64,000 nucleotides of DNA from the IMG/VR virus record IMGVR_UViG_3300045972_000807, positions 1-64,000 of that record; one strand, 5' to 3'. The notes below the pieces were generated by a model, which made no database searches, was not told the DNA's origin, and worked only from the letters and a program-made list of their open reading frames with translations. Source of the DNA: a virus. Position 1 is the first letter of the stretch. The number at the start of each line of letters is the position of its first letter. Both the position numbers and the translations under genes were made by a program. Of the stretch, positions 1,220 to 15,903 are shown piece by piece.

Positions 1220-1273
1220 GCAAGCAAAGACGCCTCCTAAGGAACCTAATCCTTAGGAGGCGTCTTTGCTTGC
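1220..1273. terminator. 24-bp perfect inverted repeat, probable bidirectional terminator
   Basis: GCAAGCAAAGACGCCTCCTAAGGA-ACCTAA-TCCTTAGGAGGCGTCTTTGCTTGC between convergent genes. Confidence 0.8.
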
Positions 1274-1277
1274 GGTT

Positions 1278-2540
1278 TTAGTCGTAAACTAATTCGGCTA
1301 CGTTAACCGAGTTACTACCTGGGTGTTGCGCTTCGTACAAAGCTGCTACACAATGCTCGTACAAGGATTCTAGGGAGGGGCCTCTTGAATCCATAAAGCC
1401 TGCTCTGCCGTAAGCCAGTCCTATGCTAACCGTTAACTTTAGTTCCAGCCTTGGGTTCTTGTCTGTTTCAGCAAAAACCATGAGGTAGTTAGCTAGGTCC
1501 TCGCGTATCTCTTCGGCTACCTGCATACAGCCAGGTACTGTAGTCTCCGGAAGGAAGATCGCAAACTCTGCTCCGCCTAAGCGCCCTGCAACGTCTGTTA
1601 CGCGAAGCTTGGCGTCAAGAACTCTAGCTACCCTTTTAAGTATCTTGTCGCCTATGCTGTACCCGTGCAGGTCATTGAAGGACTTGAAATCGTCTATGCT
1701 CATTATCAGTAAGCTGGAAGTTCCTTCGGTAAGCCTAGACGCCTTGATATAATCTCTATTGCATATCTTCCAGAACATGCGTCGGTTATAAAGCCCTGTA
1801 AGCTCATCTAGCTCCGTGAGTCTCTCAAGGTCGTCTCTTTGCTTGAGTAGCTTTTCATTAAGTTCTTTTAGCTGGCTATTGGTTGTCTCAGTTCTAACAA
1901 AGCTGTGCCACCTAAACGCTGATACTGCCATTGCTAATGGGGCGGACAAGACCAAGTCCATAGCCGAGTGTCTGAAATACTCCCCAACCTCAGCATTTCT
2001 TGCTAAGTAAACCCCTAGGGGAACCATCAGGTAAGCTGACCCGAACAACGGCACCGTTATGCTAGGCGGTGCATGATACGAAAGCGCAACGACAGCTAGC
2101 ACACCGTAGAAAACTAACCCACCTGTCTGCGCCCCGTTAACGATGTCCATGTACGATATGCTCAACCCGGCTATAAGGTAGACCGAGCTAACCACAAAGG
2201 CAACTAGCTGGGGATACTTATTGCTTCGCAAGGACACGGCACAAAACACCAGTAGGGCGATTGCGATGGCAAACATGTCCAGGTGTGCTTCAGCCTGCCC
2301 GCTTATAAGCTTTATCTGGGAGTCCTGAGCTTTCTTTTCTATAGCGTACCAGTAGGCCAAGTACGCGTGGGTGGGTATAAGACAGATCAGGAGAGCCAGG
2401 TAGCTTCTAACCGTAGAGATCGCCCCTAGCTCTTGCGTACTCTTGTACGTGGTTAAAGCGTCTCGTACCTTTTCGGGTATGGCCTTGAACATACCTGAGA
2501 CAATACCCTTGGTACTGTCGTAGTCTAAGATAGAATCCAT
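1278..2540 (-). CDS. membrane-bound degenerate GGDEF-domain protein (GGAEF), intact RxxD I-site
   Basis: About 6 hydrophobic helices, a coiled coil, then DELTGLYNRR, SIDDFKSFND, RVTD-VAGRL-GGAEF, TVSIG, ALYEAQ; ATG at 2540 has a G-rich RBS. Confidence 0.9.
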   Translation of the reverse strand: MDSILDYDSTKGIVSGMFKAIPEKVRDALTTYKSTQELGAISTVRSYLALLICLIPTHAYLAYWYAIEKKAQDSQIKLISGQAEAHLDMFAIAIALLVFCAVSLRSNKYPQLVAFVVSSVYLIAGLSISYMDIVNGAQTGGLVFYGVLAVVALSYHAPPSITVPLFGSAYLMVPLGVYLARNAEVGEYFRHSAMDLVLSAPLAMAVSAFRWHSFVRTETTNSQLKELNEKLLKQRDDLERLTELDELTGLYNRRMFWKICNRDYIKASRLTEGTSSLLIMSIDDFKSFNDLHGYSIGDKILKRVARVLDAKLRVTDVAGRLGGAEFAIFLPETTVPGCMQVAEEIREDLANYLMVFAETDKNPRLELKLTVSIGLAYGRAGFMDSRGPSLESLYEHCVAALYEAQHPGSNSVNVAELVYD

Positions 2541-2821: not shown

Positions 2822-4837
2822 CTAATTTGTACTGAAGTCCGGGTAGGCTACTTCAGATACTGCACTAATAGGAAAGCTAGCTGAATCTACAGGGCGGGAG
2901 AAATAGTACCCTTGCCCAAAGTCGCAGTCAATGCTCTTAAGAAGTTTGCCTTGTAAATTTGTCTCTACGCCTTCCGCTATAACCTTTAAGCCAAGCTTGT
3001 GGGCCATAACTGTTATGGCCTCGCACACAGACATATCGGGAGAGCCTTCATGCAAAGACCTTACAAAGCTTTGATCTATCTTGATGTAGTCAATGGGAAA
3101 CTTCTTTAGGTACGCCAAGCTAGAGTACCCAGTGCCAAAATCGTCCAGTGCTATCTCGATGCCACTAGCTTGTAGGCTATCGAGTTTATCCGCCACCGGC
3201 TCGTTGTTAACCATGATCGTGCTTTCCGTTATCTCTATAACCAGCGCATCCCCCGGGAGACCAAACTGATCTAGAGTTTCCTGTATCTTAAGCTGATGCT
3301 TGTCTAGAGACCGGAACTGGACTGCACTAACATTGACGCTCATCTTAAATTCCGGGTTTATTCTTCTCCAAGCAGCACATTGCCTTATGGCCTCATTGAA
3401 TATGAAGTCCCCAAGTTCCAAGATAAGCCCAGTGTCCTCAGCAACCGGTATAAACTCGGCAGGACTAATCTTGCCGTACCGGGGATGGGCCCACCGTACT
3501 AGGGCCTCGGCCTTAACAATCTTGCCTGTAGAAAGATCTACAATAGGCTGGTACTGCAAAAAGAACTCCCGGTTAGCCAAAGCACTATGAAAGTCACTTA
3601 TGATACGCGTACGCTTCAAGGAAGTTTCTTGCATAGCTGAGTCGTAGTAGCAGTACCTGTTGCGCCCGCTCTTTTTCGCCTCGTACATTGCTTGGTCTGC
3701 GTTCTTAAACAAGGTGGGTATGTCAACGGCATCTTTGGGATGGACTGTTATCCCTATGCTAGCTGAGACATACGCTGTGTCAGCCCCTAGCTTGAAACCT
3801 TCACTAAGGACCTTAAGTACGTTAGAGGCCACAAGGCCGGCATCCTCAGGATTAGCTATGTTATAGATAACCACGACGAATTCGTCTCCGCCTAACCGGC
3901 CAACGCAGTCTGTATTCCTAACGCAAGTCTTCATACGCGCAGCTGCCTCTACCAGAAGCCTGTCCCCTGCTTGGTGGCCGTGTGCGTCGTTAACTTCTTT
4001 GAACCTGTCAAGGTCAACAAACAATAGGCCAACCAGCGAAGTACTTCTTCCCGCAGCCACAACGTCTTCCAAGATGTTGTAAACTCTAGCTCGGTTAGGT
4101 AGTCCCGTAAGGCCGTCAAAGTAAGCACCCTTCCAGTTGGTTAAGACATTCTCGTAGTCAAGCGTGAAGCTTATAAACGCTAAAGAGGACAGATAAACCA
4201 AGGGCCCTATAAGGGGAAGATCAAGATACATACCATAGGCAAACACGTCTATCATCTGACCTGCAAAATACCAAGATAAGCAAAATAGCAGTATACCTGA
4301 CGTATGGTCCTGCTTGATTAGGTAATACTTTACTAGGTAGAACATCTGTACCAAGATAATAAAAAGCATTATTGCTTTAAACATAAGGTACTCGGGAGTT
4401 AGGACTCCCGTTGGGGATGCTGCGATGTAGTTGTAGATAGCTACGTCGCGCAGATGCATGTCTGGGCTAAACGCCTCTATGTTACCTATAGAGAGAAAAG
4501 CAAAGCACACTGCTAAGGATCCCAGAGCATAAGAAAATCCCAATGTCTTGGTATTACCACTTTTGGTGTACAGAGAGACGAACCTTAGCATCAACAGGTT
4601 AAGCAGCCCGCTGATAAAAATGCTGATAGGTAGAATGTGCCCAAACTCTTGCTGTGTGACAGCCAGCAAGAGATTCCTGTGGGTTAACCCAGACACTACG
4701 CCTACCGCGCACATTGCGGAGAACGTAAGGTTCATTTTGTCTGAGTGCCTTTGAATGCCTATCCTAGCATGGGTTAGGGAGGCATAAGCGCAAACACCTA
4801 TAAGAATATAGGTTATGCTAGTCATTATTGCGATCAT
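2822..4837 (-). CDS. 7TM sensor-GGDEF-EAL diguanylate cyclase/phosphodiesterase
   Basis: About 7 TM N-terminus; DGLTGLPNR, DLDRFKEVND, RNTD, RLGGDEF, ADQAMYEAK; EAL domain with YQP, EALVRW, VNVS, EITE, DDFGTGYSSL, KID, AEGVE, QGY. Confidence 0.95.
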   Translation of the reverse strand: MIAIMTSITYILIGVCAYASLTHARIGIQRHSDKMNLTFSAMCAVGVVSGLTHRNLLLAVTQQEFGHILPISIFISGLLNLLMLRFVSLYTKSGNTKTLGFSYALGSLAVCFAFLSIGNIEAFSPDMHLRDVAIYNYIAASPTGVLTPEYLMFKAIMLFIILVQMFYLVKYYLIKQDHTSGILLFCLSWYFAGQMIDVFAYGMYLDLPLIGPLVYLSSLAFISFTLDYENVLTNWKGAYFDGLTGLPNRARVYNILEDVVAAGRSTSLVGLLFVDLDRFKEVNDAHGHQAGDRLLVEAAARMKTCVRNTDCVGRLGGDEFVVVIYNIANPEDAGLVASNVLKVLSEGFKLGADTAYVSASIGITVHPKDAVDIPTLFKNADQAMYEAKKSGRNRYCYYDSAMQETSLKRTRIISDFHSALANREFFLQYQPIVDLSTGKIVKAEALVRWAHPRYGKISPAEFIPVAEDTGLILELGDFIFNEAIRQCAAWRRINPEFKMSVNVSAVQFRSLDKHQLKIQETLDQFGLPGDALVIEITESTIMVNNEPVADKLDSLQASGIEIALDDFGTGYSSLAYLKKFPIDYIKIDQSFVRSLHEGSPDMSVCEAITVMAHKLGLKVIAEGVETNLQGKLLKSIDCDFGQGYYFSRPVDSASFPISAVSEVAYPDFSTN

Positions 4838-4840
4838 TTT

Positions 4841-5740
4841 TTAGGTGCTCCTTGCAGCAATCAGCTTTACGCTACGCTCCACCCTGGGTAACAGTTTACT
4901 GTCCTCAGTACATATGGTTTTGTACGGACAGTAGTGGCAAAGCTCTTTTAGTTTTGGGTTATCCGAAAGACTTCGGCGCTTACTAACAACGACTTCTACA
5001 TCAGCTACGGTCTTGGCTTGTGACACAGCCAAGAACGCGCGCTTGTAACCTTCTATCCTTTTTAGGATCTTAGGGTACTCCTCCTCGAAAGTGTGTCCGT
5101 AGAACTGGGTGGACGATCTATAAACCCGTTTAGCATTGTTACGGGCTATGTAGATTAGAGTCCAGCCTTCTATGTCGTATCCTTGTTCCTTCAGCAAGGC
5201 AGCGTACGCTTCTATCTGCCTTACGTTTTCTAAATTAGGTAAGAGGCCTTTAGCCTCTAGTTTTCTCATCGACGTTGTCTTATAGTCGATGATTGTTATC
5301 TTGCCGCTCTTGAGAAGAATAGCCCCGTCGAGGTGGCCTACAACAAAGCCTTTTTTGTACTCGTGTTCTCGACCAACTACTACTTCGCTACCGCACTTTT
5401 TACATACCTTAGGCTTCAGGCAAAACTTGTGAAGTCTGCCGCACGAAAAGCATTTCCAGTCCTGAAGCAAAAATGGGCTATGGTCCAGCACCGCCTGTAT
5501 TCCGCTATGAACCGCGGTACCCACAGAGGTAAAGAACGTGCCCATGAATTTGTTACTACGCTTACCGCTTGAAGCACTTGGGTAACTTAATAACCATTTT
5601 GTTCCGCAGAACGGGAAACTAGATATACGGAGAAACCGTAACCTATCAGGGTCTAGCTTCTCCGTAACCTCGTAAGTGTCGATAGCATGTTCAATGGCCT
5701 GTTCAGCTGTCTTCACTACCGTGGGTTGCCGTAATTCCAT
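4841..5740 (-). CDS. Cas4-like PD-(D/E)xK exonuclease
   Basis: N-terminal Cys plus C-terminal CxxCxxxxxC Fe-S cysteines; GHLDG, IIDYKT, QxxxY; internal CxxC/CxxC. Confidence 0.85.
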   Translation of the reverse strand: MELRQPTVVKTAEQAIEHAIDTYEVTEKLDPDRLRFLRISSFPFCGTKWLLSYPSASSGKRSNKFMGTFFTSVGTAVHSGIQAVLDHSPFLLQDWKCFSCGRLHKFCLKPKVCKKCGSEVVVGREHEYKKGFVVGHLDGAILLKSGKITIIDYKTTSMRKLEAKGLLPNLENVRQIEAYAALLKEQGYDIEGWTLIYIARNNAKRVYRSSTQFYGHTFEEEYPKILKRIEGYKRAFLAVSQAKTVADVEVVVSKRRSLSDNPKLKELCHYCPYKTICTEDSKLLPRVERSVKLIAARST

Positions 5741-6052
5741 TTAGTGTACTGCACCTGAAGGGGTGCAGCTCATAAGCAGGTTATTCAAATCCAGAGTTAT
5801 ACGCATAACGCCGTTACCCGGGAGCTCCAACTGAGCCTCCAAGGGAAGGTGAAGCAGACTAATAGCACTTGTAACGGCGTCTTCAAGATGCTTCTCATAG
5901 GAGAACCCAGGAGTCATCTTTTCAGGTGGGACATTAGAGAGCCGAATAAGCTCTTCGGTGAACGTATGGCACAGGGCGTTGGTGTCGGAAAAATGTAACC
6001 GCACTCGAGGTGTGGTATATACTGATATGTGAACCATTATAGGTCCTTTCAT
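5741..6052 (-). CDS. hypothetical protein
   Basis: Abuts the Cas4-like gene with no gap, same strand. Confidence 0.6.
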   Translation of the reverse strand: MKGPIMVHISVYTTPRVRLHFSDTNALCHTFTEELIRLSNVPPEKMTPGFSYEKHLEDAVTSAISLLHLPLEAQLELPGNGVMRITLDLNNLLMSCTPSGAVH

Positions 6053-6088
6053 TGCCCTTACCTAAAAGGAATTATGTTATGTCGTTGA

Positions 6089-6535
6089 CTATCTGTTGTG
6101 CGCGTCCCACGCCTTATTTACCAAGTCTTCATGAGGTACAAAAGACCTTAGGTGCTTCCAACCTGCAGAGGGTCCCCAACGCTTTTCGTTGTCCTCCGGT
6201 ATCTTGGACCTGGTGTATTGTTCCACCTGAATGACCTTAGGGCCACTAAACGAGAAACAAAACTCTAGCATTACTTCAGGACGTATCTTACCTTCAGGCG
6301 TCTTGTGAACAGACGAGAAGTAAGCGTACATCTGTACCTTAGCGAATCCCCATTTGTCCACACCGTACTTGTAGGCGTGTTCATAGTTTTGATACTCCTG
6401 AAACCAAGGGTGCTTAAGCATAGAGTTGGTGCGCCCTTTGCCTAGCTTCTTTACCAAGTCTTTATCTAGTATCGGTGCCAACGGCACCTCTACAGACGAT
6501 AGGACTCTGCGGGTTCTGAGTTTACGAATAGACAC
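6089..6535 (-). CDS. hypothetical protein, possible head protein (SIRK leader)
   Basis: AAGGA RBS; N-terminus SIRKLRTRRVLSS resembles other putative head-protein leaders. Confidence 0.7.
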   Translation of the reverse strand: MSIRKLRTRRVLSSVEVPLAPILDKDLVKKLGKGRTNSMLKHPWFQEYQNYEHAYKYGVDKWGFAKVQMYAYFSSVHKTPEGKIRPEVMLEFCFSFSGPKVIQVEQYTRSKIPEDNEKRWGPSAGWKHLRSFVPHEDLVNKAWDAHNR

Positions 6536-6544
6536 GCTAAGTCC

Positions 6545-7240
6545 TTATCGGTTCCGGAACGCGTTGGTTAGCTCGGTGTTCCAGTCATGGTTGGATATGG
6601 CTGAAGGGTAGGCGGGGTCTTCCACTGCTGAGAGCTCGAAGGGTTTAATGTCGTGAACATTACGGAAGATCAGGAGCCCACCTTCTTCGTAGAACTCCAC
6701 GGGTTGCTTGGGGTTTATGTGCCGGCATTGGCCTTCAATGGCTCCGCAGCAGGAACAGCTATAGTCAGAAACCATACAGCCCATGCTCCATGTTGTCAGG
6801 TCACCCGAGACAATACGCGAGGTTACGTCTGTGCGCTTGGTTGTATCCACAGCTGCGAGTGCCATAACCTTGTAGATACGACCACCGTTGTAACCTTCAG
6901 CGGGCACAAGTGCTACGTCAGCAATGATGCCGATAGCAGCATCGTGTATCTCACTCTTGTGCTCGTAGTGCAACGGCATACCTGCCCATCCCTTGTAGCC
7001 TTGCCGGCCCAACTCTGGATTCCAGCGTACTAGCTCAGCCAAAGGAATGCCGATCCCGTTACGGTTGGGCAAGTCCGAGGTAAGAATGGGTACCACGGAG
7101 AAATGGTAATCGCTAACGTTACTGCTAAGGTTGAACGGCTTGCAGGCGAAAGGCAGGATACGCTCAAAGTCCAGAGTTTGAGCGTCGGATGCGTGAACGG
7201 CCTTAGCGGCTGCGGTGATGTTTAGTCTTTGAATTGCCAT
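6545..7240 (-). CDS. putative prohead (capsid maturation) protease
   Basis: PNRNG, PLHYEH, WSMGC followed by CSCCG...C-x-H and ELSAVEDPA, typical of herpes/HK97-fold phage proteases; lies near the portal. Confidence 0.65.
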   Translation of the reverse strand: MAIQRLNITAAAKAVHASDAQTLDFERILPFACKPFNLSSNVSDYHFSVVPILTSDLPNRNGIGIPLAELVRWNPELGRQGYKGWAGMPLHYEHKSEIHDAAIGIIADVALVPAEGYNGGRIYKVMALAAVDTTKRTDVTSRIVSGDLTTWSMGCMVSDYSCSCCGAIEGQCRHINPKQPVEFYEEGGLLIFRNVHDIKPFELSAVEDPAYPSAISNHDWNTELTNAFRNR

Positions 7241-7251
7241 GATTTTTCCGA

Positions 7252-7500
7252 TTAGGATTTAAGACGCGTGCCGTCCTTGGTATACATCTTGTACTGCTTA
7301 TTAAGCGAGTTCAGCTCAGCAGAGTCGCCTGCAAGATACGCTTTATCGGTAGAGGTCGCTTTACCATCCTTTACCTTAGCCTTGTAAGAGTTAACTGTCT
7401 CCTCCAGCTGCTTCTTACGCGGCTCATACTGGAACTTAATCCAGGATTCGATAGACGCGTAACCTCCGTAGTTACCGGCTGTTAAATTTTTTATAGGCAT
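7252..7500 (-). CDS. hypothetical protein, possible head protein (MPIK leader)
   Basis: ATG at 7500 overlaps the upstream TAA; MPIKNLTAG. Confidence 0.65.
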   Translation of the reverse strand: MPIKNLTAGNYGGYASIESWIKFQYEPRKKQLEETVNSYKAKVKDGKATSTDKAYLAGDSAELNSLNKQYKMYTKDGTRLKS

Positions 7501-7934
7501 TACTTGTATCCTAATATCTTGATTGAAAGCCACTTAGAAGGGTCTTCCGTCTGAGCTAAATTAGTTAGCTCCCTGGAAGCTGCTATGTTAACCTTAGCCC
7601 ACTCGAGGCTACTTAACGTAGCATTTTCAGAAATTCGGAGTAACCGTAGACCCAGAGCTCTTTTGTACCGGGCACCTGCGTCTGCAATTGTCTTGGCCGT
7701 TACTAGCTCATGGTTGCCCGCGTGGAAAACAGGCGAGACTATGAACTGTACCAGCCTGTCCTTAATACGCCAAGCCCGTGACCCGATGGGTGTAATCATA
7801 GCAACAGGCATGGACTCAGGATCTCTGCGAGAACCGTAGTCACTAATGAACTCTACGCTTTTAGGGGTCACTGTTTGGATTAAACCAGTGCCTTTTTGAA
7901 GCACTAGGTAGTCACCAGATTTAGGCTTGGACAT
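7500..7934 (-). CDS. hypothetical protein
   Basis: AGGA RBS; 144 aa in the head operon. Confidence 0.7.
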   Translation of the reverse strand: MSKPKSGDYLVLQKGTGLIQTVTPKSVEFISDYGSRRDPESMPVAMITPIGSRAWRIKDRLVQFIVSPVFHAGNHELVTAKTIADAGARYKRALGLRLLRISENATLSSLEWAKVNIAASRELTNLAQTEDPSKWLSIKILGYK

Positions 7935-7948
7935 TTGGCAGTTTCCTA

Positions 7949-8416
7949 CTAAACGAAAGGAGAATAGAAAAAATTTTGAGGCAACACTACACCTTGGTTG
8001 CCACTAGGCCGAACGGGAGGCATCTTGTTTAGAGTCAAGCTCATACCAGGTGGTACAACCCGCTCGTCAGACTGGCGAATAAGCTCGGGATAGTGCTCAG
8101 TGCCTTCACCGTGTGAGAAGCGGATGCCTGTGCTTTGCTGAGGACGCATGTCCTTAACAATCCAGTCTTCACAGCAGTCAGGCATAACAGGCTCTTCCTC
8201 GATGATGTAGGCGCGCCACGTAGTAGGCAAAAGACTTTCTACGCGCTTTACGCCCACAACCTTTAGCTGAGAATCAACCCATGCCGAGTCTTCGCCAGCA
8301 GGAGCTTGAACCTGGACACGCTGAAGGTCAGCACCGTCCTTTAGTGCCATAAGGTCCTTGAGCACCTGAGCCTTTAGCTCAGTATCGTACTTGTCCCAAA
8401 TGATTCCGATGTCCAT
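7949..8416 (-). CDS. hypothetical protein
   Basis: GGAGG RBS; 155 aa. Confidence 0.7.
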   Translation of the reverse strand: MDIGIIWDKYDTELKAQVLKDLMALKDGADLQRVQVQAPAGEDSAWVDSQLKVVGVKRVESLLPTTWRAYIIEEEPVMPDCCEDWIVKDMRPQQSTGIRFSHGEGTEHYPELIRQSDERVVPPGMSLTLNKMPPVRPSGNQGVVLPQNFFYSPFV

Positions 8417-8417
8417 A

Positions 8418-8672
8418 TCAGCCTCCTACGTCAATCATAGAGTCAGGCACCGCGCCAACCGCCCGGTCATCACGGCACAGGAACACAGGCTCCATCTGGC
8501 CGCTCATGGTTCGCACAGAAGAACGAACCATGGGCTTATGGCAGTAAGGGCACACCGAAGGATCAGAGTAGTCAATCTTGTCCTTGGGCTTAGGCGTCAG
8601 GAACGCTGTTTCCTTTTGAGGAGTTAGCTTGTCGAACGCGCTTGCCAGTAAGGCAGTTTTGAGGTATGTCAT
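8418..8672 (-). CDS. small zinc-ribbon-like protein
   Basis: CPYC...LCRDD; directly downstream of the portal. Confidence 0.7.
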   Translation of the reverse strand: MTYLKTALLASAFDKLTPQKETAFLTPKPKDKIDYSDPSVCPYCHKPMVRSSVRTMSGQMEPVFLCRDDRAVGAVPDSMIDVGG

Positions 8673-8676
8673 TTAT

Positions 8677-10518
8677 TTACCATCCTATTTTCGGCATTGT
8701 GCCATGCTTGGCAAGCAGTTGTTTCTTAACTTCAGCAAACCTATGTGGGTCACTCAAGGACTTGACCGCCTTAACGATCTTGTCGTTGGCCATCTGGGTT
8801 TCATTGGCCGACGCAGGAACAGGCTTGCCTGATTTGTTGTACTTGAAGTCTCCACCGAACTCGCGATCCAAAAGGCTAGGAGTGGGAGTACGCAGCGCGC
8901 TCTTCATTGGGTACGAGTCAACGTGCTTACGGAAATCATCCAGAGACATTAGAGACGCCTCTTCGGTTGTGTCTCCGCTATCGCCAGTATCTTGTCCGTC
9001 GCCAGGTTGCCCAGGTTTCTTGCTAGGGTCAGTGCCCATGAGCTTAGCTATCTGATCCCGAATTTCCTTGTCCTGTGCCAAGTCGAACAGGGAAGCACTC
9101 AGGTCGATATTGGCAGCCGCCGCCCAGGTCTTTAGTCCAACAGGGAAACCCTTTTCAGACAGCTTGTCCAAGTTCTCTAACAGAGCAGCACTGTTAGGGG
9201 TCTTCAAGTTCTTTGCCCACTGAATGGTCGGCATCTTCAGGTTCTTGGTATTCCTCATGTTGTACAGAAGACTCTCAAGCGTTCCTTTGTCCCGAACTTC
9301 CTTGGGGTCCTTGTACAGCTGATTTGTAATGGCAATCAGCGGGAACAGCTTGGAGTAGAACAGCTTGTGAGTGAGGTACTCCCGATAGCTGTCCAGGTTG
9401 TCCATGAACATAGTCAGGGACGCTTCAGCATTAGCGTAAGTCGCATCGGACGACAAGAACGCTTCTGATATTCCCAAAGCTCGCAGCTTGTAAGGCACCA
9501 GTACGTCAGCGCTGTCTGTCCACTTCCAGATTTCACCAGCGGGACGAATGTCAGACAGAGTAACGCCTTGCCGTGTAGCAACCCAAGCGCCTAAAGGATC
9601 CATATCCGACATTTGGAACTTCTGAGTGTACTCCAGCATCTCAGCCGCAGTAGGTTCCCAGTCGTCAGTACCCATCATGATCTGGGTAGTAGCCCGCTGC
9701 CGCTTTGAAGCCTCAGTCAGTGTCCCACGGAACAGAGTCTTCTCAAGCATATACATTGGCAAAAGCCGACGCAGGTAAGACACACAAGCGCTGTCTTGTG
9801 TACCCTTACGAAGAGCAAGCAACGTCGTAACCGGGTCAAGGACATTGGACCCGTTCATAAAGTTCTCAAGGATCTTAGTCGGGTAGCCGCGCAGGGTAGC
9901 GTCAGCATACGGACTATAAGATGCCATGAACTGCTTCAGGTTGTTGGCGCTGTTAACCACCACCACTGGATCAACCGAGAACAAAGGCTGCGGACTGATA
10001 GTGGAGTTAAACCGGTCATGAACCAGGACGTCATGGAAGCCGTTAGTCTTGTTGTCATACAGCAGTGTCCCAATGAAAGCGCCGTCCACCAAAAAGTTGC
10101 GGGATATCTGCGGAAGCATAATCCGCATGTCCAACCGGGCTAACGCATCAGCGTAAAGCTCAGACACCTGCTGGTCAGCACCTGTAAGAGTCCAGTTGCT
10201 GAAAGCAAGTCCACATTGTAGGTCAACGGCTGAGCCTCCTACGTTGTCGTAGTGCCAGATATCTCGCAGCAAGATTCCCAGCTGAGCATCATCGCTGGAG
10301 TTGTCAGGGATGATACCGCGGAACATCGTTGAGAATTGAACGCCGCCGAACATGCCAACGCTCATAGCCGAATCTGCGAACGCGGTCTCTTTATGCTGTC
10401 CGTTAGCTGAGCTACCTGTCCCTTTGGACAGGTACTGGGCGCGTGACCCACCAGGGTTAACTGCCTGGCTACGCTTTTGGAGTACTCCGTTTGCTACGGA
10501 CACACGGGATTTGAACAT
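8677..10518 (-). CDS. portal protein (putative)
   Basis: 613 aa directly downstream of terminase; helical core, portal-like FLSSDATYANAE segment, low-complexity C-terminal tail. Confidence 0.75.
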   Translation of the reverse strand: MFKSRVSVANGVLQKRSQAVNPGGSRAQYLSKGTGSSANGQHKETAFADSAMSVGMFGGVQFSTMFRGIIPDNSSDDAQLGILLRDIWHYDNVGGSAVDLQCGLAFSNWTLTGADQQVSELYADALARLDMRIMLPQISRNFLVDGAFIGTLLYDNKTNGFHDVLVHDRFNSTISPQPLFSVDPVVVVNSANNLKQFMASYSPYADATLRGYPTKILENFMNGSNVLDPVTTLLALRKGTQDSACVSYLRRLLPMYMLEKTLFRGTLTEASKRQRATTQIMMGTDDWEPTAAEMLEYTQKFQMSDMDPLGAWVATRQGVTLSDIRPAGEIWKWTDSADVLVPYKLRALGISEAFLSSDATYANAEASLTMFMDNLDSYREYLTHKLFYSKLFPLIAITNQLYKDPKEVRDKGTLESLLYNMRNTKNLKMPTIQWAKNLKTPNSAALLENLDKLSEKGFPVGLKTWAAAANIDLSASLFDLAQDKEIRDQIAKLMGTDPSKKPGQPGDGQDTGDSGDTTEEASLMSLDDFRKHVDSYPMKSALRTPTPSLLDREFGGDFKYNKSGKPVPASANETQMANDKIVKAVKSLSDPHRFAEVKKQLLAKHGTMPKIGW

Positions 10519-10561
10519 TGTGGTTTATCCTTAATTACAGGTTAGACCCCTGCTTTACTAT

Positions 10562-10571
10562 ATTAAAATTG
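10562..10571 (-). promoter_or_regulatory. candidate late-promoter element CAATTTTAAT
   Basis: Related sites lie upstream of other structural blocks (47536-47545, 55639-55647, 40241-40250). Confidence 0.4.
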
Positions 10572-10572
10572 T

Positions 10573-12738
10573 TCAGTACCTGCGGCGGCCGAAGCCCCCG
10601 GCAAATACCTGGGAGAAGTTGAATGAGGAATTCCCTGCCACTAAGATACCCGGATTGTCTGAAATCTCACGATCAATTTCTTTGAATTTAGACAGATACT
10701 TGGCTACCCGCTCGTTAAGAATCCCTGTTACTGCCAAGACCATCGCTCGGTGTAAGTCATCCGTATAGCGTATCCCTGAAGGAGACGCGCCCTTAGTAAC
10801 GGTACCACCAAGCTCTTGTACGGTTAGCATCTGAAGGTACAGGTGGTCAGAGGGATGATCTCGTAGCTCACGCTTGTAGTCAGTTATAAGTTCTGTCCTA
10901 CCCGGATCAAGATCTAATTTGGGCAAGTACAGGCAGCCACTCTCAACTAAGCTTACCACGTTAGTAAAATCTCCCATTTTTACGCTGTACTGCTGAGATT
11001 TAAGATCCTTAACGTCGTCTTGTGCCTGCTGTAGAATCTGGAGAGAGTTCCAACGGTCTGACAGGAGTGCTTTAACGTTACACTCTTTACAGATAGGCAG
11101 AATAATCTTTTGGTACATCGTAGGGAAATGAATTACCTTTCCCGGTTGAGGAACTACCTCAATAAGAACTGGCACCCTAATGTCACCGCCCATCCGGTAA
11201 GATAGTGCTAACGAAAAAGCGTTATCGGTGGAACCTGCGTCAAGTGCTAGTATCGAGGGTGGATGCTTTGCTGACTTGTATTTACGAACAGCCCTTGCTA
11301 CTGTATGCTCAGAACTAGCTTCATAGGCTACACCGTACCACGGTTCGATTTGAAAGCACGCAAGCGCGCTATCCCGTTGGTAAAAGTCAGAACCAATCTT
11401 AGGAGGGTTAGCCCCGTAATCTCGTTCTGCCTTCTTAGCATTACGTCTGTACGCTGCAACAATGGTGGGATGCTCACGTGGGAACATCGGTGTTATTTCC
11501 CACGTGGGCTGCTTAACACAGCACGCATTCGGGTTGTCGTTATTCTCTAGGTACAGGCGACAGATCTTATCCATCCAAGAGAACGGACTACTGATGTTAA
11601 AGTTGATGCCTTGGCAAAGGTGCTGAATGCCTTTTTCCCGGGCGGCAATAATAGCACCCTGCACAGTAGTCAAGCTATTGGATAGTGACTGGTGAACTTC
11701 GTCTGCATTTGCCCGTTCACGGTCATCGCCATCCCCATCCTCGGACTGATCCGGGTTGAATGGAAACAAACCTAATTCGTCGGTAACTGCTGCGAACCGC
11801 GTATCACCGCGAAGTGTTCTCTTAGCTGGGCCTGAGGAATACAGGTCCAAGTTTCTATGGAACAGGCGTAGGTACAAACCATTGACCTGCTTGAACTGGT
11901 AAAGCTCTTTTCCTGTCTCTAAACGCTTGGCGTCCAGAATTTGGAACAGCTCTTTGTACCAGGTAGAGCTAGCAATAAGCCGTCTGAACGGTGACCAGAG
12001 AGTCTTAGCTGCCTGGTGGGATGTGGTGGCAACCATAGTACACGTAAGCGGAGAGAACTCCTGAATACCGCTATACATAGAACTTAGCTTAGGGCTCTTA
12101 AGTAGCACATGAGTAACGTAGGCTATTAGCATAACGCTAACAGTGGACTTGCCTGACCGCTGCCCAGCGATCATAATCAATTCTGTCTTGTCGTGTAGCT
12201 CGCCGGAAGCCACAAGCTCGTGCTTGGTGGCCTCGCAGTACGGGCAAATCCCGAACTCAAGGAAGGCTACCTTCTTACGAAAATCCTTTGGATCCATGTC
12301 CACAGGGATGTTCATAATGTCCTCGTACCAGAAAGGCTTGGTACACCTTGGGCAGAACTCAGCCAGCAAGACATACGACATGTACATCTGACGAGCAAAG
12401 GGCATCTGTCCTGTACCGATAACCCTAACGCAGAAGTCAAAGAAGTTCTTAGCCATTGGGAGGCTAGAGTCGTCTACCCGCAGATCGCGAACTGTATTGG
12501 TTTCGGGATCATACGCCTTTGCCATTGCATTGGCAACAAAGTTGTCATCAGCATCGTCGGGTAACAATTCCTCAACCGTGGAAACCCATTCCACTTCTCC
12601 ATTAGGAAGTAGCTCAGCATTTACGGGATGATCTTTAACTATACGCTTCCACTTGTCGCAGGAGTACCCTACTATCTTGACCTTCTTAGGATCAGGACAG
12701 GTAAGAAACTTAGCACAGTTAAGACACTTTTTAGCCAT
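10573..12738 (-). CDS. terL: terminase large subunit
   Basis: Walker A GQRSGKS, Walker B AAVTDE, coupling motif ISSP, RNase H-fold LALDAG and DDL; N-terminal Cys clusters. Confidence 0.88.
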   Translation of the reverse strand: MAKKCLNCAKFLTCPDPKKVKIVGYSCDKWKRIVKDHPVNAELLPNGEVEWVSTVEELLPDDADDNFVANAMAKAYDPETNTVRDLRVDDSSLPMAKNFFDFCVRVIGTGQMPFARQMYMSYVLLAEFCPRCTKPFWYEDIMNIPVDMDPKDFRKKVAFLEFGICPYCEATKHELVASGELHDKTELIMIAGQRSGKSTVSVMLIAYVTHVLLKSPKLSSMYSGIQEFSPLTCTMVATTSHQAAKTLWSPFRRLIASSTWYKELFQILDAKRLETGKELYQFKQVNGLYLRLFHRNLDLYSSGPAKRTLRGDTRFAAVTDELGLFPFNPDQSEDGDGDDRERANADEVHQSLSNSLTTVQGAIIAAREKGIQHLCQGINFNISSPFSWMDKICRLYLENNDNPNACCVKQPTWEITPMFPREHPTIVAAYRRNAKKAERDYGANPPKIGSDFYQRDSALACFQIEPWYGVAYEASSEHTVARAVRKYKSAKHPPSILALDAGSTDNAFSLALSYRMGGDIRVPVLIEVVPQPGKVIHFPTMYQKIILPICKECNVKALLSDRWNSLQILQQAQDDVKDLKSQQYSVKMGDFTNVVSLVESGCLYLPKLDLDPGRTELITDYKRELRDHPSDHLYLQMLTVQELGGTVTKGASPSGIRYTDDLHRAMVLAVTGILNERVAKYLSKFKEIDREISDNPGILVAGNSSFNFSQVFAGGFGRRRY

Positions 12739-12753
12739 ATCGGAAATCCAAAC

Positions 12754-12788
12754 AAAAATGGCCCGTACACCGTTACCAGCGCCGGGCC
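12754..12788 (-). terminator. probable intrinsic terminator
   Basis: Minus strand GGCCCG-GCGCTG-GTAA-CGGTGT-A-CGGGCC followed by ATTTTTG (GNRA loop, G-U pairs). Confidence 0.55.
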
Positions 12789-12794
12789 CCTACG

Positions 12795-13061
12795 TTACCT
12801 GATTAAGTCTAAGAGTTCGCCATCTTCACCACGCAGGTAGTAGTGCGCGTGAAGGACGGTTAGGCGACCTACCCCATCCACAAAGTGTACCGTGTCCTCT
12901 TTAAGGAGGTCCAGCTCTTCTATGGGTGTAGTGTGCTCTAACCGTACCGTTAAGATTGTTACGAAGTCTTCTACCTTCTTGAACACAGAAGAAACTGTGC
13001 CCAAGTCAGCGTCAGCATAGTCCTCAATCGGCGTCGTCGTCCGCGTCGTCGTCTGAGTCAT
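12795..13061 (-). CDS. hypothetical protein (start uncertain)
   Basis: Only sizeable ORF between recA and terL; its 5' end overlaps the recA tail. Confidence 0.45.
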   Translation of the reverse strand: MTQTTTRTTTPIEDYADADLGTVSSVFKKVEDFVTILTVRLEHTTPIEELDLLKEDTVHFVDGVGRLTVLHAHYYLRGEDGELLDLIR

Positions 13062-14553
13062 CGGCTGCTTTAGCCTTCGCATTCCCCTTCGTTTGCTTAG
13101 CTTCCCAGTATAGTGCATCGAGTGCCCCCTTTTTGGATAGGTTTATTAGGCCGCGGCGCAAGTTGACAGGCTTGTACCCTAATGCTTTGCAGACTTCCGC
13201 CCGCTGCTCAGGTGTGCCGATGATTAGCTTCTTGAAAGTAAGCCAGTCAATGTTCTTTTTAGCTTCGCCGAGACCCGGAATGTTTAGCCGCATACTGCTG
13301 CGCTTGCCAGTAATGATGCCGCACAGGAAACCGGTATAGAAAGTGTCCCACACAAGATCATAACCGCGTGCTTCGCCGGTTGAATCAGAAACCCACAACC
13401 GTAGCCACATTTCCTGTTGTGGCGTACTGAGTTTGTTCTTGATCGTCTTGCAGTGGATGTAGCGATAGGTATCTTCACCGCTGCCATCAACAGAAGGCTC
13501 CTTTTCGATCATGCCCTCACCCTTCGGGTGGAAGGGAACACCTGACAACGCACGTGGGTAAACCCGCATACGCTGATCGCTGTTGAACTTGAGTGCTTCG
13601 CCGCAAGGCTCACGCTCAGGGCTTCCGAACATCGCACCCGGGTTCAGACGCAGCTGGTTGATACCCAGCAACGCGATACGCTTGGCCCGTACAAAGCCCT
13701 TGACGCGAGGCAGGTGCAGCGAGAACATACGCGCCTGCACAGCCATAGCCTTCGTGTGCTCATCATTGTCCTGAGCTAACGGCATCAACGACGGATAGCT
13801 ATCAACGATGATAACCGCCTGCAAGCTATCGTCCTTGGCCGGTACCCAGATGCCATGATTGGCTTTGCTCATTACCTTGTCGGCATGAGCCAAATACTTG
13901 GCCTGGTTTGGCTTTGTGTTCTCGTACACGTACCACCAGCGGTCATTGTCGTACCGCTTGTCGGGCAAACGCTTGAGTAGCGCATGAAGCCAGTTAAAGA
14001 AGTCCTCGCCCACCGCTGAGTCTTGGTAGTACACAAGCGGCTTAACCGTATATACTCCTTTCTTGCGAACGCCAAAGATTTCCTCAAACGGCCGGTGAAT
14101 GCCTTGCTCGTTCAGAATATTCTGAATGTAGTCAGAGCTACTACCGGAAGATTGCTCTGCGTCCCACAGCGTAGATATAGGTACGCCCTGGTTGATTGTT
14201 GCCGCCATGATCGTGATGGCCAGCGTTGTCTTGGCTGATTGCTCCGGGCCGAAGATGGTACACATCGTTGGGCCTATGCCACGACCTAGAATCAGGTCGA
14301 TGCCTAGCAGGCCGGAGTGCATACGCGATTCTTCTGATAGCGATATGCTGTTGAGCTTTACAACGCCTGAAACTTCTTCCAACAAACCCAAGTAGTCCAT
14401 CTCGCCGGGAGACGTCTTGACTTTAGAGGACTTAATCTTTTTTACGGGAACGTCTTCTACTTCTTGTTCTACTACCCTACGTACCTTGGCCTTGCGGACT
14501 GGCACTTCTTCCTCAACCTCTGCTGCTTTTCGTTTTGATGCTGCTGTTACCAC
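13024..14553 (-). CDS. recA: RecA/UvsX-like recombinase
   Basis: SGLLGIDLILG, Walker A variant GPEQSAKTT, WDAE, IIVDS, QARMFS, INQLR, PCGEALKFNSDQR, KNK; carries an insertion and a charged N-terminal extension. Confidence 0.9.
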   Translation of the reverse strand: MVTAASKRKAAEVEEEVPVRKAKVRRVVEQEVEDVPVKKIKSSKVKTSPGEMDYLGLLEEVSGVVKLNSISLSEESRMHSGLLGIDLILGRGIGPTMCTIFGPEQSAKTTLAITIMAATINQGVPISTLWDAEQSSGSSSDYIQNILNEQGIHRPFEEIFGVRKKGVYTVKPLVYYQDSAVGEDFFNWLHALLKRLPDKRYDNDRWWYVYENTKPNQAKYLAHADKVMSKANHGIWVPAKDDSLQAVIIVDSYPSLMPLAQDNDEHTKAMAVQARMFSLHLPRVKGFVRAKRIALLGINQLRLNPGAMFGSPEREPCGEALKFNSDQRMRVYPRALSGVPFHPKGEGMIEKEPSVDGSGEDTYRYIHCKTIKNKLSTPQQEMWLRLWVSDSTGEARGYDLVWDTFYTGFLCGIITGKRSSMRLNIPGLGEAKKNIDWLTFKKLIIGTPEQRAEVCKALGYKPVNLRRGLINLSKKGALDALYWEAKQTKGNAKAKAADDSDDDADDDAD

Positions 14554-14571
14554 GGTTTTATTCCTTTAAAT

Positions 14572-14605
14572 AGGGCCGTCCGACATTAGCCGGCGGCCCT
14601 TTTTT
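14572..14605. terminator. probable terminator downstream of the SSB gene
   Basis: AGGGCCGTCCG...CGGCGGCCCT hairpin flanked by T/A runs. Confidence 0.65.
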
Positions 14606-14628
14606 AGCTCCTGCAGATTACCTGAGTG

Positions 14629-15903
14629 TTAAAACTCGTCGTCTTCGTCGTCGTCAACCGCAGCCTTTTTCTTGGCTGCTGGTTTCTTGGCAGCCGCAGC
14701 TGGTTTCTTTTTCGGAGGAGGAGCGTCGTCTTCATCCTCGTCCTCGTCTTCATCGTCGTCAACCACGGCCTTCTTCTTGGCAGCAGGCTTGGCTTTGGCC
14801 TTGGCCTTTGCCGGTGGCTCGTCATCTTCGTCCTCTTCATCTTCGTCGTCTTCATCTACGACAGGCTTTTTCTTTGCGGCCGGTTTCTTCTTGGCAGGAG
14901 GCTCATCTTCGTCCTCGTCGTCGAAGTCATCGTCCTCATCGTCAGCCGCCGGCTTCTTCTTGGCAGCTGGTTTCTTCTTCGCCGGTGGCTCGTCGTCCTC
15001 ATCTTCGTCGAAGTCGTCATCTTCGTCATCGGCGGCTGGCTTGGCCTTAGCCTTAGCAGCAGGTTTCTTCTTCGGCGGAGGAGTATCGTCCTCGTCTTCT
15101 TCGTCTTCTTCATCGTCCTCGTCGGCGACTTTCTTCTTGCCCTTGGCCGCCGGTTTGTCTTCCATGAAGCCCATGCGCTTGGCCCACTTGGCGTACTCGG
15201 CCTCGGCTTCCTTCTGCGTGGGCGTAATCATCAGTGCTGACAAATCCCAGATCAGGTACGTGCGCTCTTCCTTGGTCAAAGGAGCCTGGGTGCCCATCTG
15301 CACTTCGTACATTTGTGCAGGTGCCACTGACTTGTCACGCTTGATGCTGACGTCTGCGCCGTAACGTGGATGTGCAACCGAGTAGTTGACTGTTTCGCCT
15401 TCAGCGTTTTCAACAGTGTTGAGCTGCTTCAGATCTTGCAGGCGGCGGAGAACCGAGCCTGTCAAGCGAACTGCCTTGACCGGAGTCCAGCTTTCACTGG
15501 CCTTCGACTTGTAACCTGATTCTTGCTCTTCAGCAGTGGCCTTGATTTTGACTGGTTTGTTGGCCTGGTCTTTGCGGTGAACCGCATTGATGAAGTAGTC
15601 CATAGCGAACCGAACGTGGCCGCTTTCGTCGTCGCACCACGGGCAATGCTTCGTGCTGTCCTGACGACCTGTTTCAATGTCGAACGCTGCACATGGGTAA
15701 TAGAAGTTACCCTTGCCGCCGTCCTTCTTCTTCGTTTCAATCCAGTGACCGCCATAAGCGTGAACTGAACCGAACGGGCGGAGCTTCACAAACTTCTTGT
15801 CGGGCAGATCATAGAGATCAACCACGTCAGCGGGCTTGCGAATATCGCCTTGACCTTTAACCTGGACATCGTCCATGTCAAAACCTGTTTTCTTCGTAAC
15901 CAT
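14629..15903 (-). CDS. single-stranded DNA-binding protein (gp32-like) with long charge-block tail
   Basis: His/Cys Zn-type motif (GHW...YPC...CPWC), YGADVSIKR, adjacent to recA, acidic DDEF C-terminus. Confidence 0.7.
   Translation of the reverse strand: MVTKKTGFDMDDVQVKGQGDIRKPADVVDLYDLPDKKFVKLRPFGSVHAYGGHWIETKKKDGGKGNFYYPCAAFDIETGRQDSTKHCPWCDDESGHVRFAMDYFINAVHRKDQANKPVKIKATAEEQESGYKSKASESWTPVKAVRLTGSVLRRLQDLKQLNTVENAEGETVNYSVAHPRYGADVSIKRDKSVAPAQMYEVQMGTQAPLTKEERTYLIWDLSALMITPTQKEAEAEYAKWAKRMGFMEDKPAAKGKKKVADEDDEEDEEDEDDTPPPKKKPAAKAKAKPAADDEDDDFDEDEDDEPPAKKKPAAKKKPAADDEDDDFDDEDEDEPPAKKKPAAKKKPVVDEDDEDEEDEDDEPPAKAKAKAKPAAKKKAVVDDDEDEDEDEDDAPPPKKKPAAAAKKPAAKKKAAVDDDEDDEF
14632..15160 (-). 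repeat. coding repeat of alternating D/E blocks and PPxKKKPAAK blocks
   Basis: Six acidic tracts separated by Lys/Pro/Ala tracts; tcgtc/tcttc-rich DNA. Confidence 0.9.

Follow-up and report, generated by a model that had tools for sequence, protein, structure and literature searches.

A catalytically degenerate, membrane-anchored GGDEF protein conserved in a jumbo-phage clade, and its possible role as a reader of cyclic di-GMP

What would a phage gain from a diguanylate cyclase that has lost its catalytic residues? The question is raised by a gene for a degenerate GGDEF protein near the beginning of IMG/VR virus record IMGVR_UViG_3300045972_000807, analysed here over a window comprising the first 64 kb (64,000 nucleotides) of the 171.7-kb record; the coordinates of this gene and of its neighbours are collected in Table 1. 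A sequence-only reading of the locus had proposed that the gene is maintained by selection as a receptor of cyclic di-GMP (c-di-GMP), a sponge for it, or a poison subunit of host cyclases. The interpretation that we favour, tentatively and at slightly less than even confidence, is that the protein is a GGDEF pseudo-enzyme with a dead active site and a six-helix anchor in the inner membrane, and that it would act as a non-catalytic signalling subunit reading c-di-GMP.

The GGDEF domain was compared with the 120 nearest bacterial GGDEF domains, columns being counted as conserved at a threshold of at least 90%. The phage protein departs from the bacterial consensus at Ser281 (Asp in 98% of the bacterial domains), Tyr294 (His in 99%), Ala324 (Glu or Asp in 98%), Cys338 (Ala in 92%), Cys397 (Ala in 90%), Val398 (Asp in 99%), Gln405 (Lys in 99%), and Ser409 (Arg or Lys in 100%). 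In PleD numbering, the lost positions include both Mg ligands (D327 and E370) and both phosphate ligands (K442 and R446). The motifs SID, GGAEF, and YEAQHPGSN, from which the loss of metal ligands and of triphosphate-binding basic residues had been claimed, were confirmed by the translation and by this comparison, but the earlier list was incomplete, since His294 and Asp398 are lost as well and the change at Glu344, discussed below, was missed. Conserved columns that are retained comprise D245, LTGL, R254, D283, F285, K286, N289, D290, G293, G297, and D298 in the first part of the domain, and R313, D316, R320, the GG of the signature, E325, F326, S372, G374, Y402, G408, and N410 in the second. 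The guanine-binding Asn and Asp (PleD N335 and D344) are thus present in this phage as N289 and D298, as had been stated, although N289 is not a general feature, being replaced by Gln in one related lineage (L007). Judged from the alignment, the pattern of loss is non-random: known metal- and triphosphate-binding residues are removed, while fold-defining residues are kept. With the loss of both metal ligands, both phosphate ligands, and two further residues that are almost universal, synthesis of c-di-GMP by the protein is not plausible.

Outside the active site, the domain is a recognisable GGDEF domain. The Pfam GGDEF family (PF00990) was matched with an E-value of 1.6e-29 and 103 bits against a cut-off of 23.8, over residues 249–415 in the numbering of the TTG-start translation, and sequence searches of the PDB returned GcbC, ImcA, WspR, and PleD, with GcbC (5euh) as the best match (E 6.5e-23). 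No Pfam match was found in the first 245 residues. An AlphaFold2 (AF2) model built on a 93-row alignment, with a predicted local distance difference test score (pLDDT) of 92, has six transmembrane (TM) helices that lead through a stalk into a complete GGDEF fold; a model from three sequences alone (pLDDT 41) was not usable. The helices of the membrane domain are predicted at residues 39–68, 76–106, 110–134, 140–154, 159–182, and from 186 onward, the last of them running without interruption through residues 186–243 into the stalk. The membrane domain resembles MASE-type sensor domains but belongs to no Pfam family, and a protein atlas gave MASE-like leads only. In Foldseek searches with the AF2 model, isolated GGDEF domains gave target-normalised TM-scores of 0.8–0.9, and the top full-length match was the 6TM cyclase ImcA (8wcn), over 398 aligned columns. 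A complex prediction with two copies of the protein and two c-di-GMP molecules scored 0.01 and was not used as evidence.

Nei–Gojobori analysis was carried out against two close relatives, loci L005 and L003. For the closest pair (L005), the proportions of synonymous (pS) and nonsynonymous (pN) differences were 0.69 and 0.066, with an omega (dN/dS) of 0.036; for L003, pS was 0.82 and pN 0.147. Synonymous sites are near saturation (pS 0.69–0.82), with pN in the range of 0.066–0.158 across comparisons, and the GGDEF half is under more constraint than the TM half. Similar values were obtained for the portal gene (0.049) and for the nuclease (0.072), and the degenerate residues are all identical in the two close homologues. 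The pseudo-cyclase gene is under strong purifying selection, and neutral decay is rejected by a dN/dS of about 0.04. The earlier proposal of selection rather than decay, for which a dN/dS analysis across phage homologues had been suggested, is therefore borne out, and synteny in four lineages and the invariance of RxxD amid differently decaying catalytic residues, described below, point the same way.

The gene is not confined to this phage. It is syntenic in four diverged phage lineages, in which it stands at the end of a block of terminase, portal, and PD-(D/E)XK nuclease genes, and the encoded proteins share 30–40% identity. In the other three lineages, the nuclease gene directly precedes the pseudo-cyclase gene, which overlaps the nuclease stop codon by 1–8 nt. 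The active site has been damaged differently in each lineage. This phage and its two close relatives have SID, FK, ND, GY, GGAEF, and AQ..GSN; lineage L007 has SID, LE, QK, GD, a signature that reads RVSDDLL, and AK..GCTN; lineage L009 has DLD, LS, NE, GV, and GSDEF; and lineage L011 has DVD, LQ, NT, GF, and GGDVF. K286 is replaced by E, S, or Q in the other lineages, and E325 by L or V. Of 38 columns conserved in at least 90% of the bacterial domains, one or more phage lineages have lost 21, and these cover every catalytic or substrate-binding residue tested (D281, K286, N289, G322, G323, E325, and K405); His294 is lost in all of them. Sixteen of the 38 columns survive in all phage lineages, R313, D316, and R320 among them.

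A set of 5.8 billion clustered proteins contained only two close homologues, P0003 (89% identity) and P0004 (76%). When 1.84 billion representatives were searched with a profile built from the membrane domain only, ten proteins were matched. The phage-contig matches were P0123 and P0124 (E 1e-31 to 1e-30) and P0126 (4e-7), one of the three contigs being 209 kb long, and the remaining matches are bacterial proteins of the same architecture. P0125, P0127, P0128, and P0130 retain the canonical DxD, FK, ND, GH, GGEEF/GGDEF, and AKxxGRN motifs, P0129 is itself degenerate, and P0131 is a membrane domain alone. The full-length bacterial relatives belong to the Comamonadaceae (the P0125 family and loci L015–L018). 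Their membrane domain is homologous to that of the phage protein (profile E 7e-8 to 5e-4), with the same length and layout, but they are 25–30% identical to it and mostly canonical, presumably active cyclases. In a maximum-likelihood tree, the six phage proteins are monophyletic (support 99/99), and the nearest non-phage clade is that of the Comamonadaceae 6TM-GGDEF proteins. The phage family can be defined by a six-helix N-terminal domain, a degenerate active site (A-site), the motif RxTDV, and a position downstream of the nuclease in the terminase–portal block, all of which are found for the protein of this phage. The pseudo-cyclase is thus a conserved, vertically inherited gene of a jumbo-phage clade.

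The part of the domain that has not been damaged is the face of the inhibitory site (I-site). The sequence-only reading had pointed to RVTD five residues before GGAEF, and the translation agrees: RVTD corresponds to R313-V-T-D316, with exactly five residues between D316 and G322. RxxD is invariant in all six phage proteins, and all lineages keep RxTDV, Arg320, and Arg269. Arg269 aligns with the Arg of WspR helix alpha-1, and we infer from the alignment that it is equivalent to the secondary I-site Arg (PleD R313, WspR R198); it lies within a phage-specific conserved stretch, R262-D263-x-x-K266-x-x-R269. Invariant phage positions are densest at 313–320 (R-x-T-D-V-x-x-R) and in helix alpha-1 (R262, D263, K266, R269, and G273), where 10 of 20 positions (313–320 plus 262–273) are invariant compared with 27 of 156 elsewhere (post-hoc Fisher test, p 0.002). 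Several invariant residues are rare in bacterial GGDEF domains, namely D263 (4%), K266 (3%), K299 (1%), and F329 (3%). The retention of RxTDV, Arg320, and Arg269 alongside an active site that each lineage has wrecked differently supports a non-catalytic role with the I-site face at its centre.

One could hypothesise, then, that the working surface of the protein is this face, made up of RxTDV, Arg320, and helix alpha-1 with Arg269. By analogy with the degenerate GGDEF receptors PelD and PopA, the likeliest ligand would be c-di-GMP, so that the protein would read the c-di-GMP level of the host, which in this phage would also be set by a neighbouring phage GGDEF-EAL enzyme. The stalk helix would then relay the signal, either to the membrane domain or to a partner bound by the protein. 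A bolder and doubtful proposal is that the clade's pseudo-cyclase reads host c-di-GMP as a measure of the biofilm or motile state, or else jams host 6TM cyclases, and that this is coupled to a phage decision, possibly via the nuclease or the membrane domain.

However, several observations weigh against c-di-GMP as the ligand. The third primary I-site position (PleD R390, PelD R402), located in an ungapped alignment by counting 20 residues after the third signature residue, is Glu344 in this phage; it is Ser, Ala, or Lys in other phage lineages and Lys in the bacterial kin, and even among the nearest homologues only 57% have Arg or Lys there. Because this residue is Glu, canonical binding of c-di-GMP by the protein of this phage is not assured. 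The presence of RxxD is in itself weak evidence, since it is 97–99% conserved in the nearest active bacterial relatives, and the chance that R313 and D316 both survived by inertia is roughly 0.2, given that 16 of the 38 columns survive everywhere. No c-di-GMP enzyme lies within 10 kb of the gene in lineages L007 and L009, so that the link drawn earlier to the phage GGDEF-EAL protein is secondary, and no PilZ protein or other c-di-GMP effector was found in the 171-kb record. Finally, the interaction of GcbC with LapD is reported to depend on the GcbC I-site (Dahlstrom et al. 2016, as cited in PMC10904736), and the conserved face of the phage protein may therefore be an interface for another protein.

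Comparison with known systems shows both the basis and the limits of the analogy. PopA of Caulobacter is a Rec-Rec-degenerate GGDEF protein with a dead A-site and a functional I-site that serves as a ligand sensor. The phage protein shares the dead A-site and the retained RxxD I-site, whereas PopA has a soluble response-regulator architecture and is neither membrane-bound nor viral. PelD of Pseudomonas aeruginosa is an inner-membrane, non-catalytic, degenerate GGDEF receptor that keeps RxxD (PMC7112168, PMC8461298), and the phage protein is like it in all these respects of location, degeneracy, and motif. Unlike PelD, which has a GAF domain between its TM and GGDEF parts, the third Arg (R402, where the phage has Glu344), and a place in the pel polysaccharide operon, the phage protein has a six-helix domain joined directly to GGDEF via the stalk helix. 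Pfam detected no GAF domain in it, and its gene, a neighbour of the nuclease gene, is surrounded by the nuclease, GGDEF-EAL, and small phage open reading frames rather than by a pel operon. The layout of six TM helices and a stalk ahead of the GGDEF domain is also that of ImcA of P. aeruginosa (8wcn), a homodimer whose TM domain mediates partner binding (PMC10904736); ImcA, however, is an active GGEEF cyclase, and at 21–22% identity and a query-normalised TM-score of 0.38 the resemblance is one of architecture and does not establish family membership. GcbC of P. fluorescens, the best PDB sequence match of the GGDEF domain, differs in being an active cyclase with a periplasmic CACHE sensor. In phages, GGDEF domains have previously been described solely within polyvalent proteins, a class shared with plasmids (Iyer et al. 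2017, PMC5512222), but those are parts of giant multi-domain proteins that are probably injected and presumed active, whereas here a stand-alone membrane pseudo-enzyme is encoded.

The c-di-GMP enzyme beside the gene has a different history. The GGDEF-EAL protein is 50–55% identical to enzymes of Methylophilaceae, Rhodoferax, Paraburkholderia, and Methylomonas; because of this identity, its gene is best regarded as a recent capture between the nuclease and pseudo-cyclase genes, far more recent than the pseudo-cyclase, and its kinship hints at a freshwater beta- or gammaproteobacterial host, for which Burkholderiales, Methylophilaceae, or Methylococcales are candidates. Together with a gene for a 66-aa protein, it occupies this place in this subclade only. 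Lineage L011 carries a different, cytoplasmic GGDEF-EAL protein (39% identical) and next to it an HDOD protein (both within 3641–6650, minus strand), 3 kb from its pseudo-cyclase. Two lineages have thus each captured a complete GGDEF-EAL enzyme within a few kb of the pseudo-cyclase, and since these enzymes are 39% identical to one another, against 50–55% identity between the enzyme of this phage and bacterial ones, the L011 module indicates an independent acquisition.

Alternatively, the protein may be a poison subunit or decoy, as had been suggested earlier, a possibility we regard as unlikely though not negligible. A diguanylate cyclase needs two GTP-loaded GGDEF domains, and a mixed dimer of the phage protein with a host 6TM cyclase or with the phage GGDEF-EAL protein would therefore be inactive, the I-site perhaps helping to lock the pair through cross-linking by c-di-GMP. 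This would agree with the homology of the membrane domain to those of canonical GGEEF cyclases of Comamonadaceae (Rhodoferax and Ca. Aalborgicola), with the polar residues R45, H58, D132, S207, and W211 common to phage and bacterial membrane domains, and with the retention of the stalk helix. Moreover, the rate at which the pseudo-cyclase evolves between lineages is roughly double that of the adjacent nuclease (37% versus 69% identity, the latter with the L007 orthologue), as expected of a host-interacting protein. On the other hand, the identity to the bacterial family is only 25–30% and the phage clade is separate in the tree; heterodimer specificity across such divergence is doubtful, no cognate host partner can be named, and two lineages lack a nearby phage cyclase to regulate.

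The conserved face may instead be a ligand-independent scaffold, which we also consider improbable, though not negligibly so. The membrane domain would sense a membrane or periplasmic cue and the dead GGDEF face, formed by R262, D263, K266, R269, K299, and RxTDV, would bind a phage or host protein; the partner could be the translationally coupled PD-(D/E)XK nuclease. Several of the invariant residues are specific to the phage clade (D263, K266, K299, and F329), Glu344 weakens the canonical I-site, and the gene overlaps the nuclease stop codon in three lineages, although phage genes often overlap and no binding can be concluded from it. What speaks for a c-di-GMP reader and against a pure scaffold is that conservation is strictest exactly at the c-di-GMP-binding RxxD and Arg269, and that GGDEF-EAL enzymes have been captured beside it more than once, which points to c-di-GMP.

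Stoichiometric depletion of free c-di-GMP by a sponge, another of the earlier proposals, is very improbable: the I-site is retained and phage sponges of other cyclic nucleotides are known (Acb2; PMC10312549), but these are small, soluble, and abundant, which makes a membrane-anchored 6TM protein, of a kind expected not to be abundant, a poor candidate, and the intact EAL phosphodiesterase of the phage would remove the messenger catalytically. Residual or altered catalysis, with another nucleotide product or metal geometry, is barely credible, since both metal and both phosphate ligands are absent and retained residues such as K286 and E325 are not kept in other lineages, even though K286, N289, D298, R320, and E325 remain in this phage and an AGDEF enzyme is active (PMC3974145). 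A changed product specificity, of the Hypr type or another, is likewise unlikely, as the residues that bind metal and phosphate have not been exchanged but are missing.

Phages have known means of degrading or sequestering the cyclic nucleotides used in defence. Receptors with a degenerate GGDEF domain are textbook knowledge (PMC7288161, PMC12564702); what is new here is a stand-alone, membrane-anchored pseudo-cyclase conserved in a phage lineage. In the literature searched, no phage-encoded c-di-GMP receptor or pseudo-cyclase was found, the search for phage-encoded cyclases turned up only YfiN-binding peptides, by which phages perturb c-di-GMP indirectly (PMC8085984), and a jumbo-phage survey mentioned GGDEF only in its reference list. 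If the c-di-GMP reader proposed here is real, a virus would encode a receptor for this second messenger, for which no such class has been described, and binding of the ligand would mean that large lytic phages monitor a lifestyle signal of the host. Poisoning of host cyclases would instead constitute a new viral strategy against biofilm formation. The same dead enzyme has been kept across phages diverged to about 35% identity, with selection on the allosteric face rather than the active site, which offers a natural experiment on the part of a GGDEF domain that stays important when catalysis is no longer required.

Table 1. Features of the pseudo-cyclase locus in the window (residue numbers refer to the degenerate GGDEF protein).
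Feature	Position	Strand	Basis
Likely bidirectional terminator, perfect 24-bp hairpin	1220-1273		Sequence; fold -48.4 kcal/mol, z -12
Degenerate GGDEF protein gene, membrane-anchored, 420 aa	1278-2540 (stop codon included)	minus	Open reading frame and translation, Pfam, purifying selection
N-terminal integral membrane domain, residues 1-215, six predicted TM helices	1896-2540	minus	AF2 model, profile search
Stalk/signalling helix, residues ~216-244, from last TM helix to GGDEF domain	1809-1895	minus	AF2 model
GGDEF domain, residues 245-415, active site degenerate	1296-1808	minus	Pfam, PDB sequence matches, Foldseek
Arg269, putative secondary I-site Arg	1734-1736	minus	Alignment to WspR; invariant in phage clade
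SID replacing DxD; metal-binding Asp position (PleD D327) is Ser281	1692-1700	minus	Translation, alignment
FND motif	1671-1679	minus	Translation
GYSIGD motif	1647-1664	minus	Translation
RVTD, RxxD I-site motif	1593-1604	minus	Translation; RxTDV invariant in all four phage lineages
GGAEF signature; metal-binding acidic third residue (PleD E370) is Ala324	1563-1577	minus	Translation, alignment
YEAQHPGSN replacing YxAKxxGRN; phosphate-binding basic residues lost (Gln405, Ser409)	1311-1337	minus	Translation, alignment
66-aa protein, one N-terminal TM helix, basic His-rich tail	2562-2762	minus	Conserved in two close relatives only; no Pfam family
Membrane GGDEF-EAL protein, 671 aa, catalytic motifs of both domains intact	2822-4837	minus	Translation, Pfam
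PD-(D/E)XK (Cas4-like) nuclease gene	4841-5740	minus	Pfam, PHROG, synteny

The reading frame is intact, as had been noted, and lies on the minus strand; a plus-strand reading of the same interval was rejected, the frame being full of stop codons. The start codon is ATG at 2540, with a Shine–Dalgarno-like GGGGG run 8 nt upstream, and the N-terminus MDSILDYD is identical in the two relatives. Downstream, the hairpin lies exactly between two convergent stop codons (1218 and 1278), separating the gene from convergent small open reading frames, and is likely to be a bidirectional terminator. The 66-aa protein encoded upstream, with the tail ERRRHSERR..LSHSDF..THSRR, matches no family.

The record as a whole encodes a terminase, a portal, a UvsX-like recombinase, a single-stranded DNA-binding protein (SSB), a sigma factor, and a DNA polymerase, and jumbo phages of Burkholderia, Ralstonia, Achromobacter, and Erwinia have terminases with about 34% identity to its own. 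IMG/VR labels the record 'provirus', which would allow the gene to belong to a host flank. No tyrosine integrase was found in the 171-kb record, the GC content is uniform across it (45–52%), and the related 20-kb phage contig L003 has the same gene order and runs more than 5 kb past the start of this record. These results point to a phage gene and argue against a host flank, and the label appears to be an artefact.

DNA and protein searches of 50,697 phage records revealed no close relative; the GGDEF matches there were generic, with at most 37% identity, and many came from bacterial contigs filed as phage. Scans of IMG/VR with the single protein and with the clade alignment, as well as a word-indexed search with the clade profile, added no further members, and loci L012–L014 were rejected as unrelated GGDEF proteins. 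The unrelated IMG/VR contig L013 encodes, at 4704–15116, a polyvalent protein of more than 3,400 aa with a GGDEF domain (RRGGDEF), which, as a GGDEF domain inside a giant polyvalent protein, fits the class of Iyer et al. (2017, PMC5512222).

Some minor features of the surrounding block vary within the clade. The terminase and portal genes contain inteins (Intein_splicing, LAGLIDADG) in L007 (1–4198) and in the contig of P0124 (22,720 bases, sample ERZ1426850), while the terminase (721 aa) and portal (613 aa) of the window are free of them. Small genes of the crAss001_48 family (precomputed Pfam label 'Sequestin') occur near the pseudo-cyclase in L007 (16235–16444) and L011 (7565–7768), and none was found in this record. 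In L003 (16460–16861) and L007 (17851–18764), genes with a hemerythrin domain are found a few kb past the pseudo-cyclase; the matching region falls before the start of this record.

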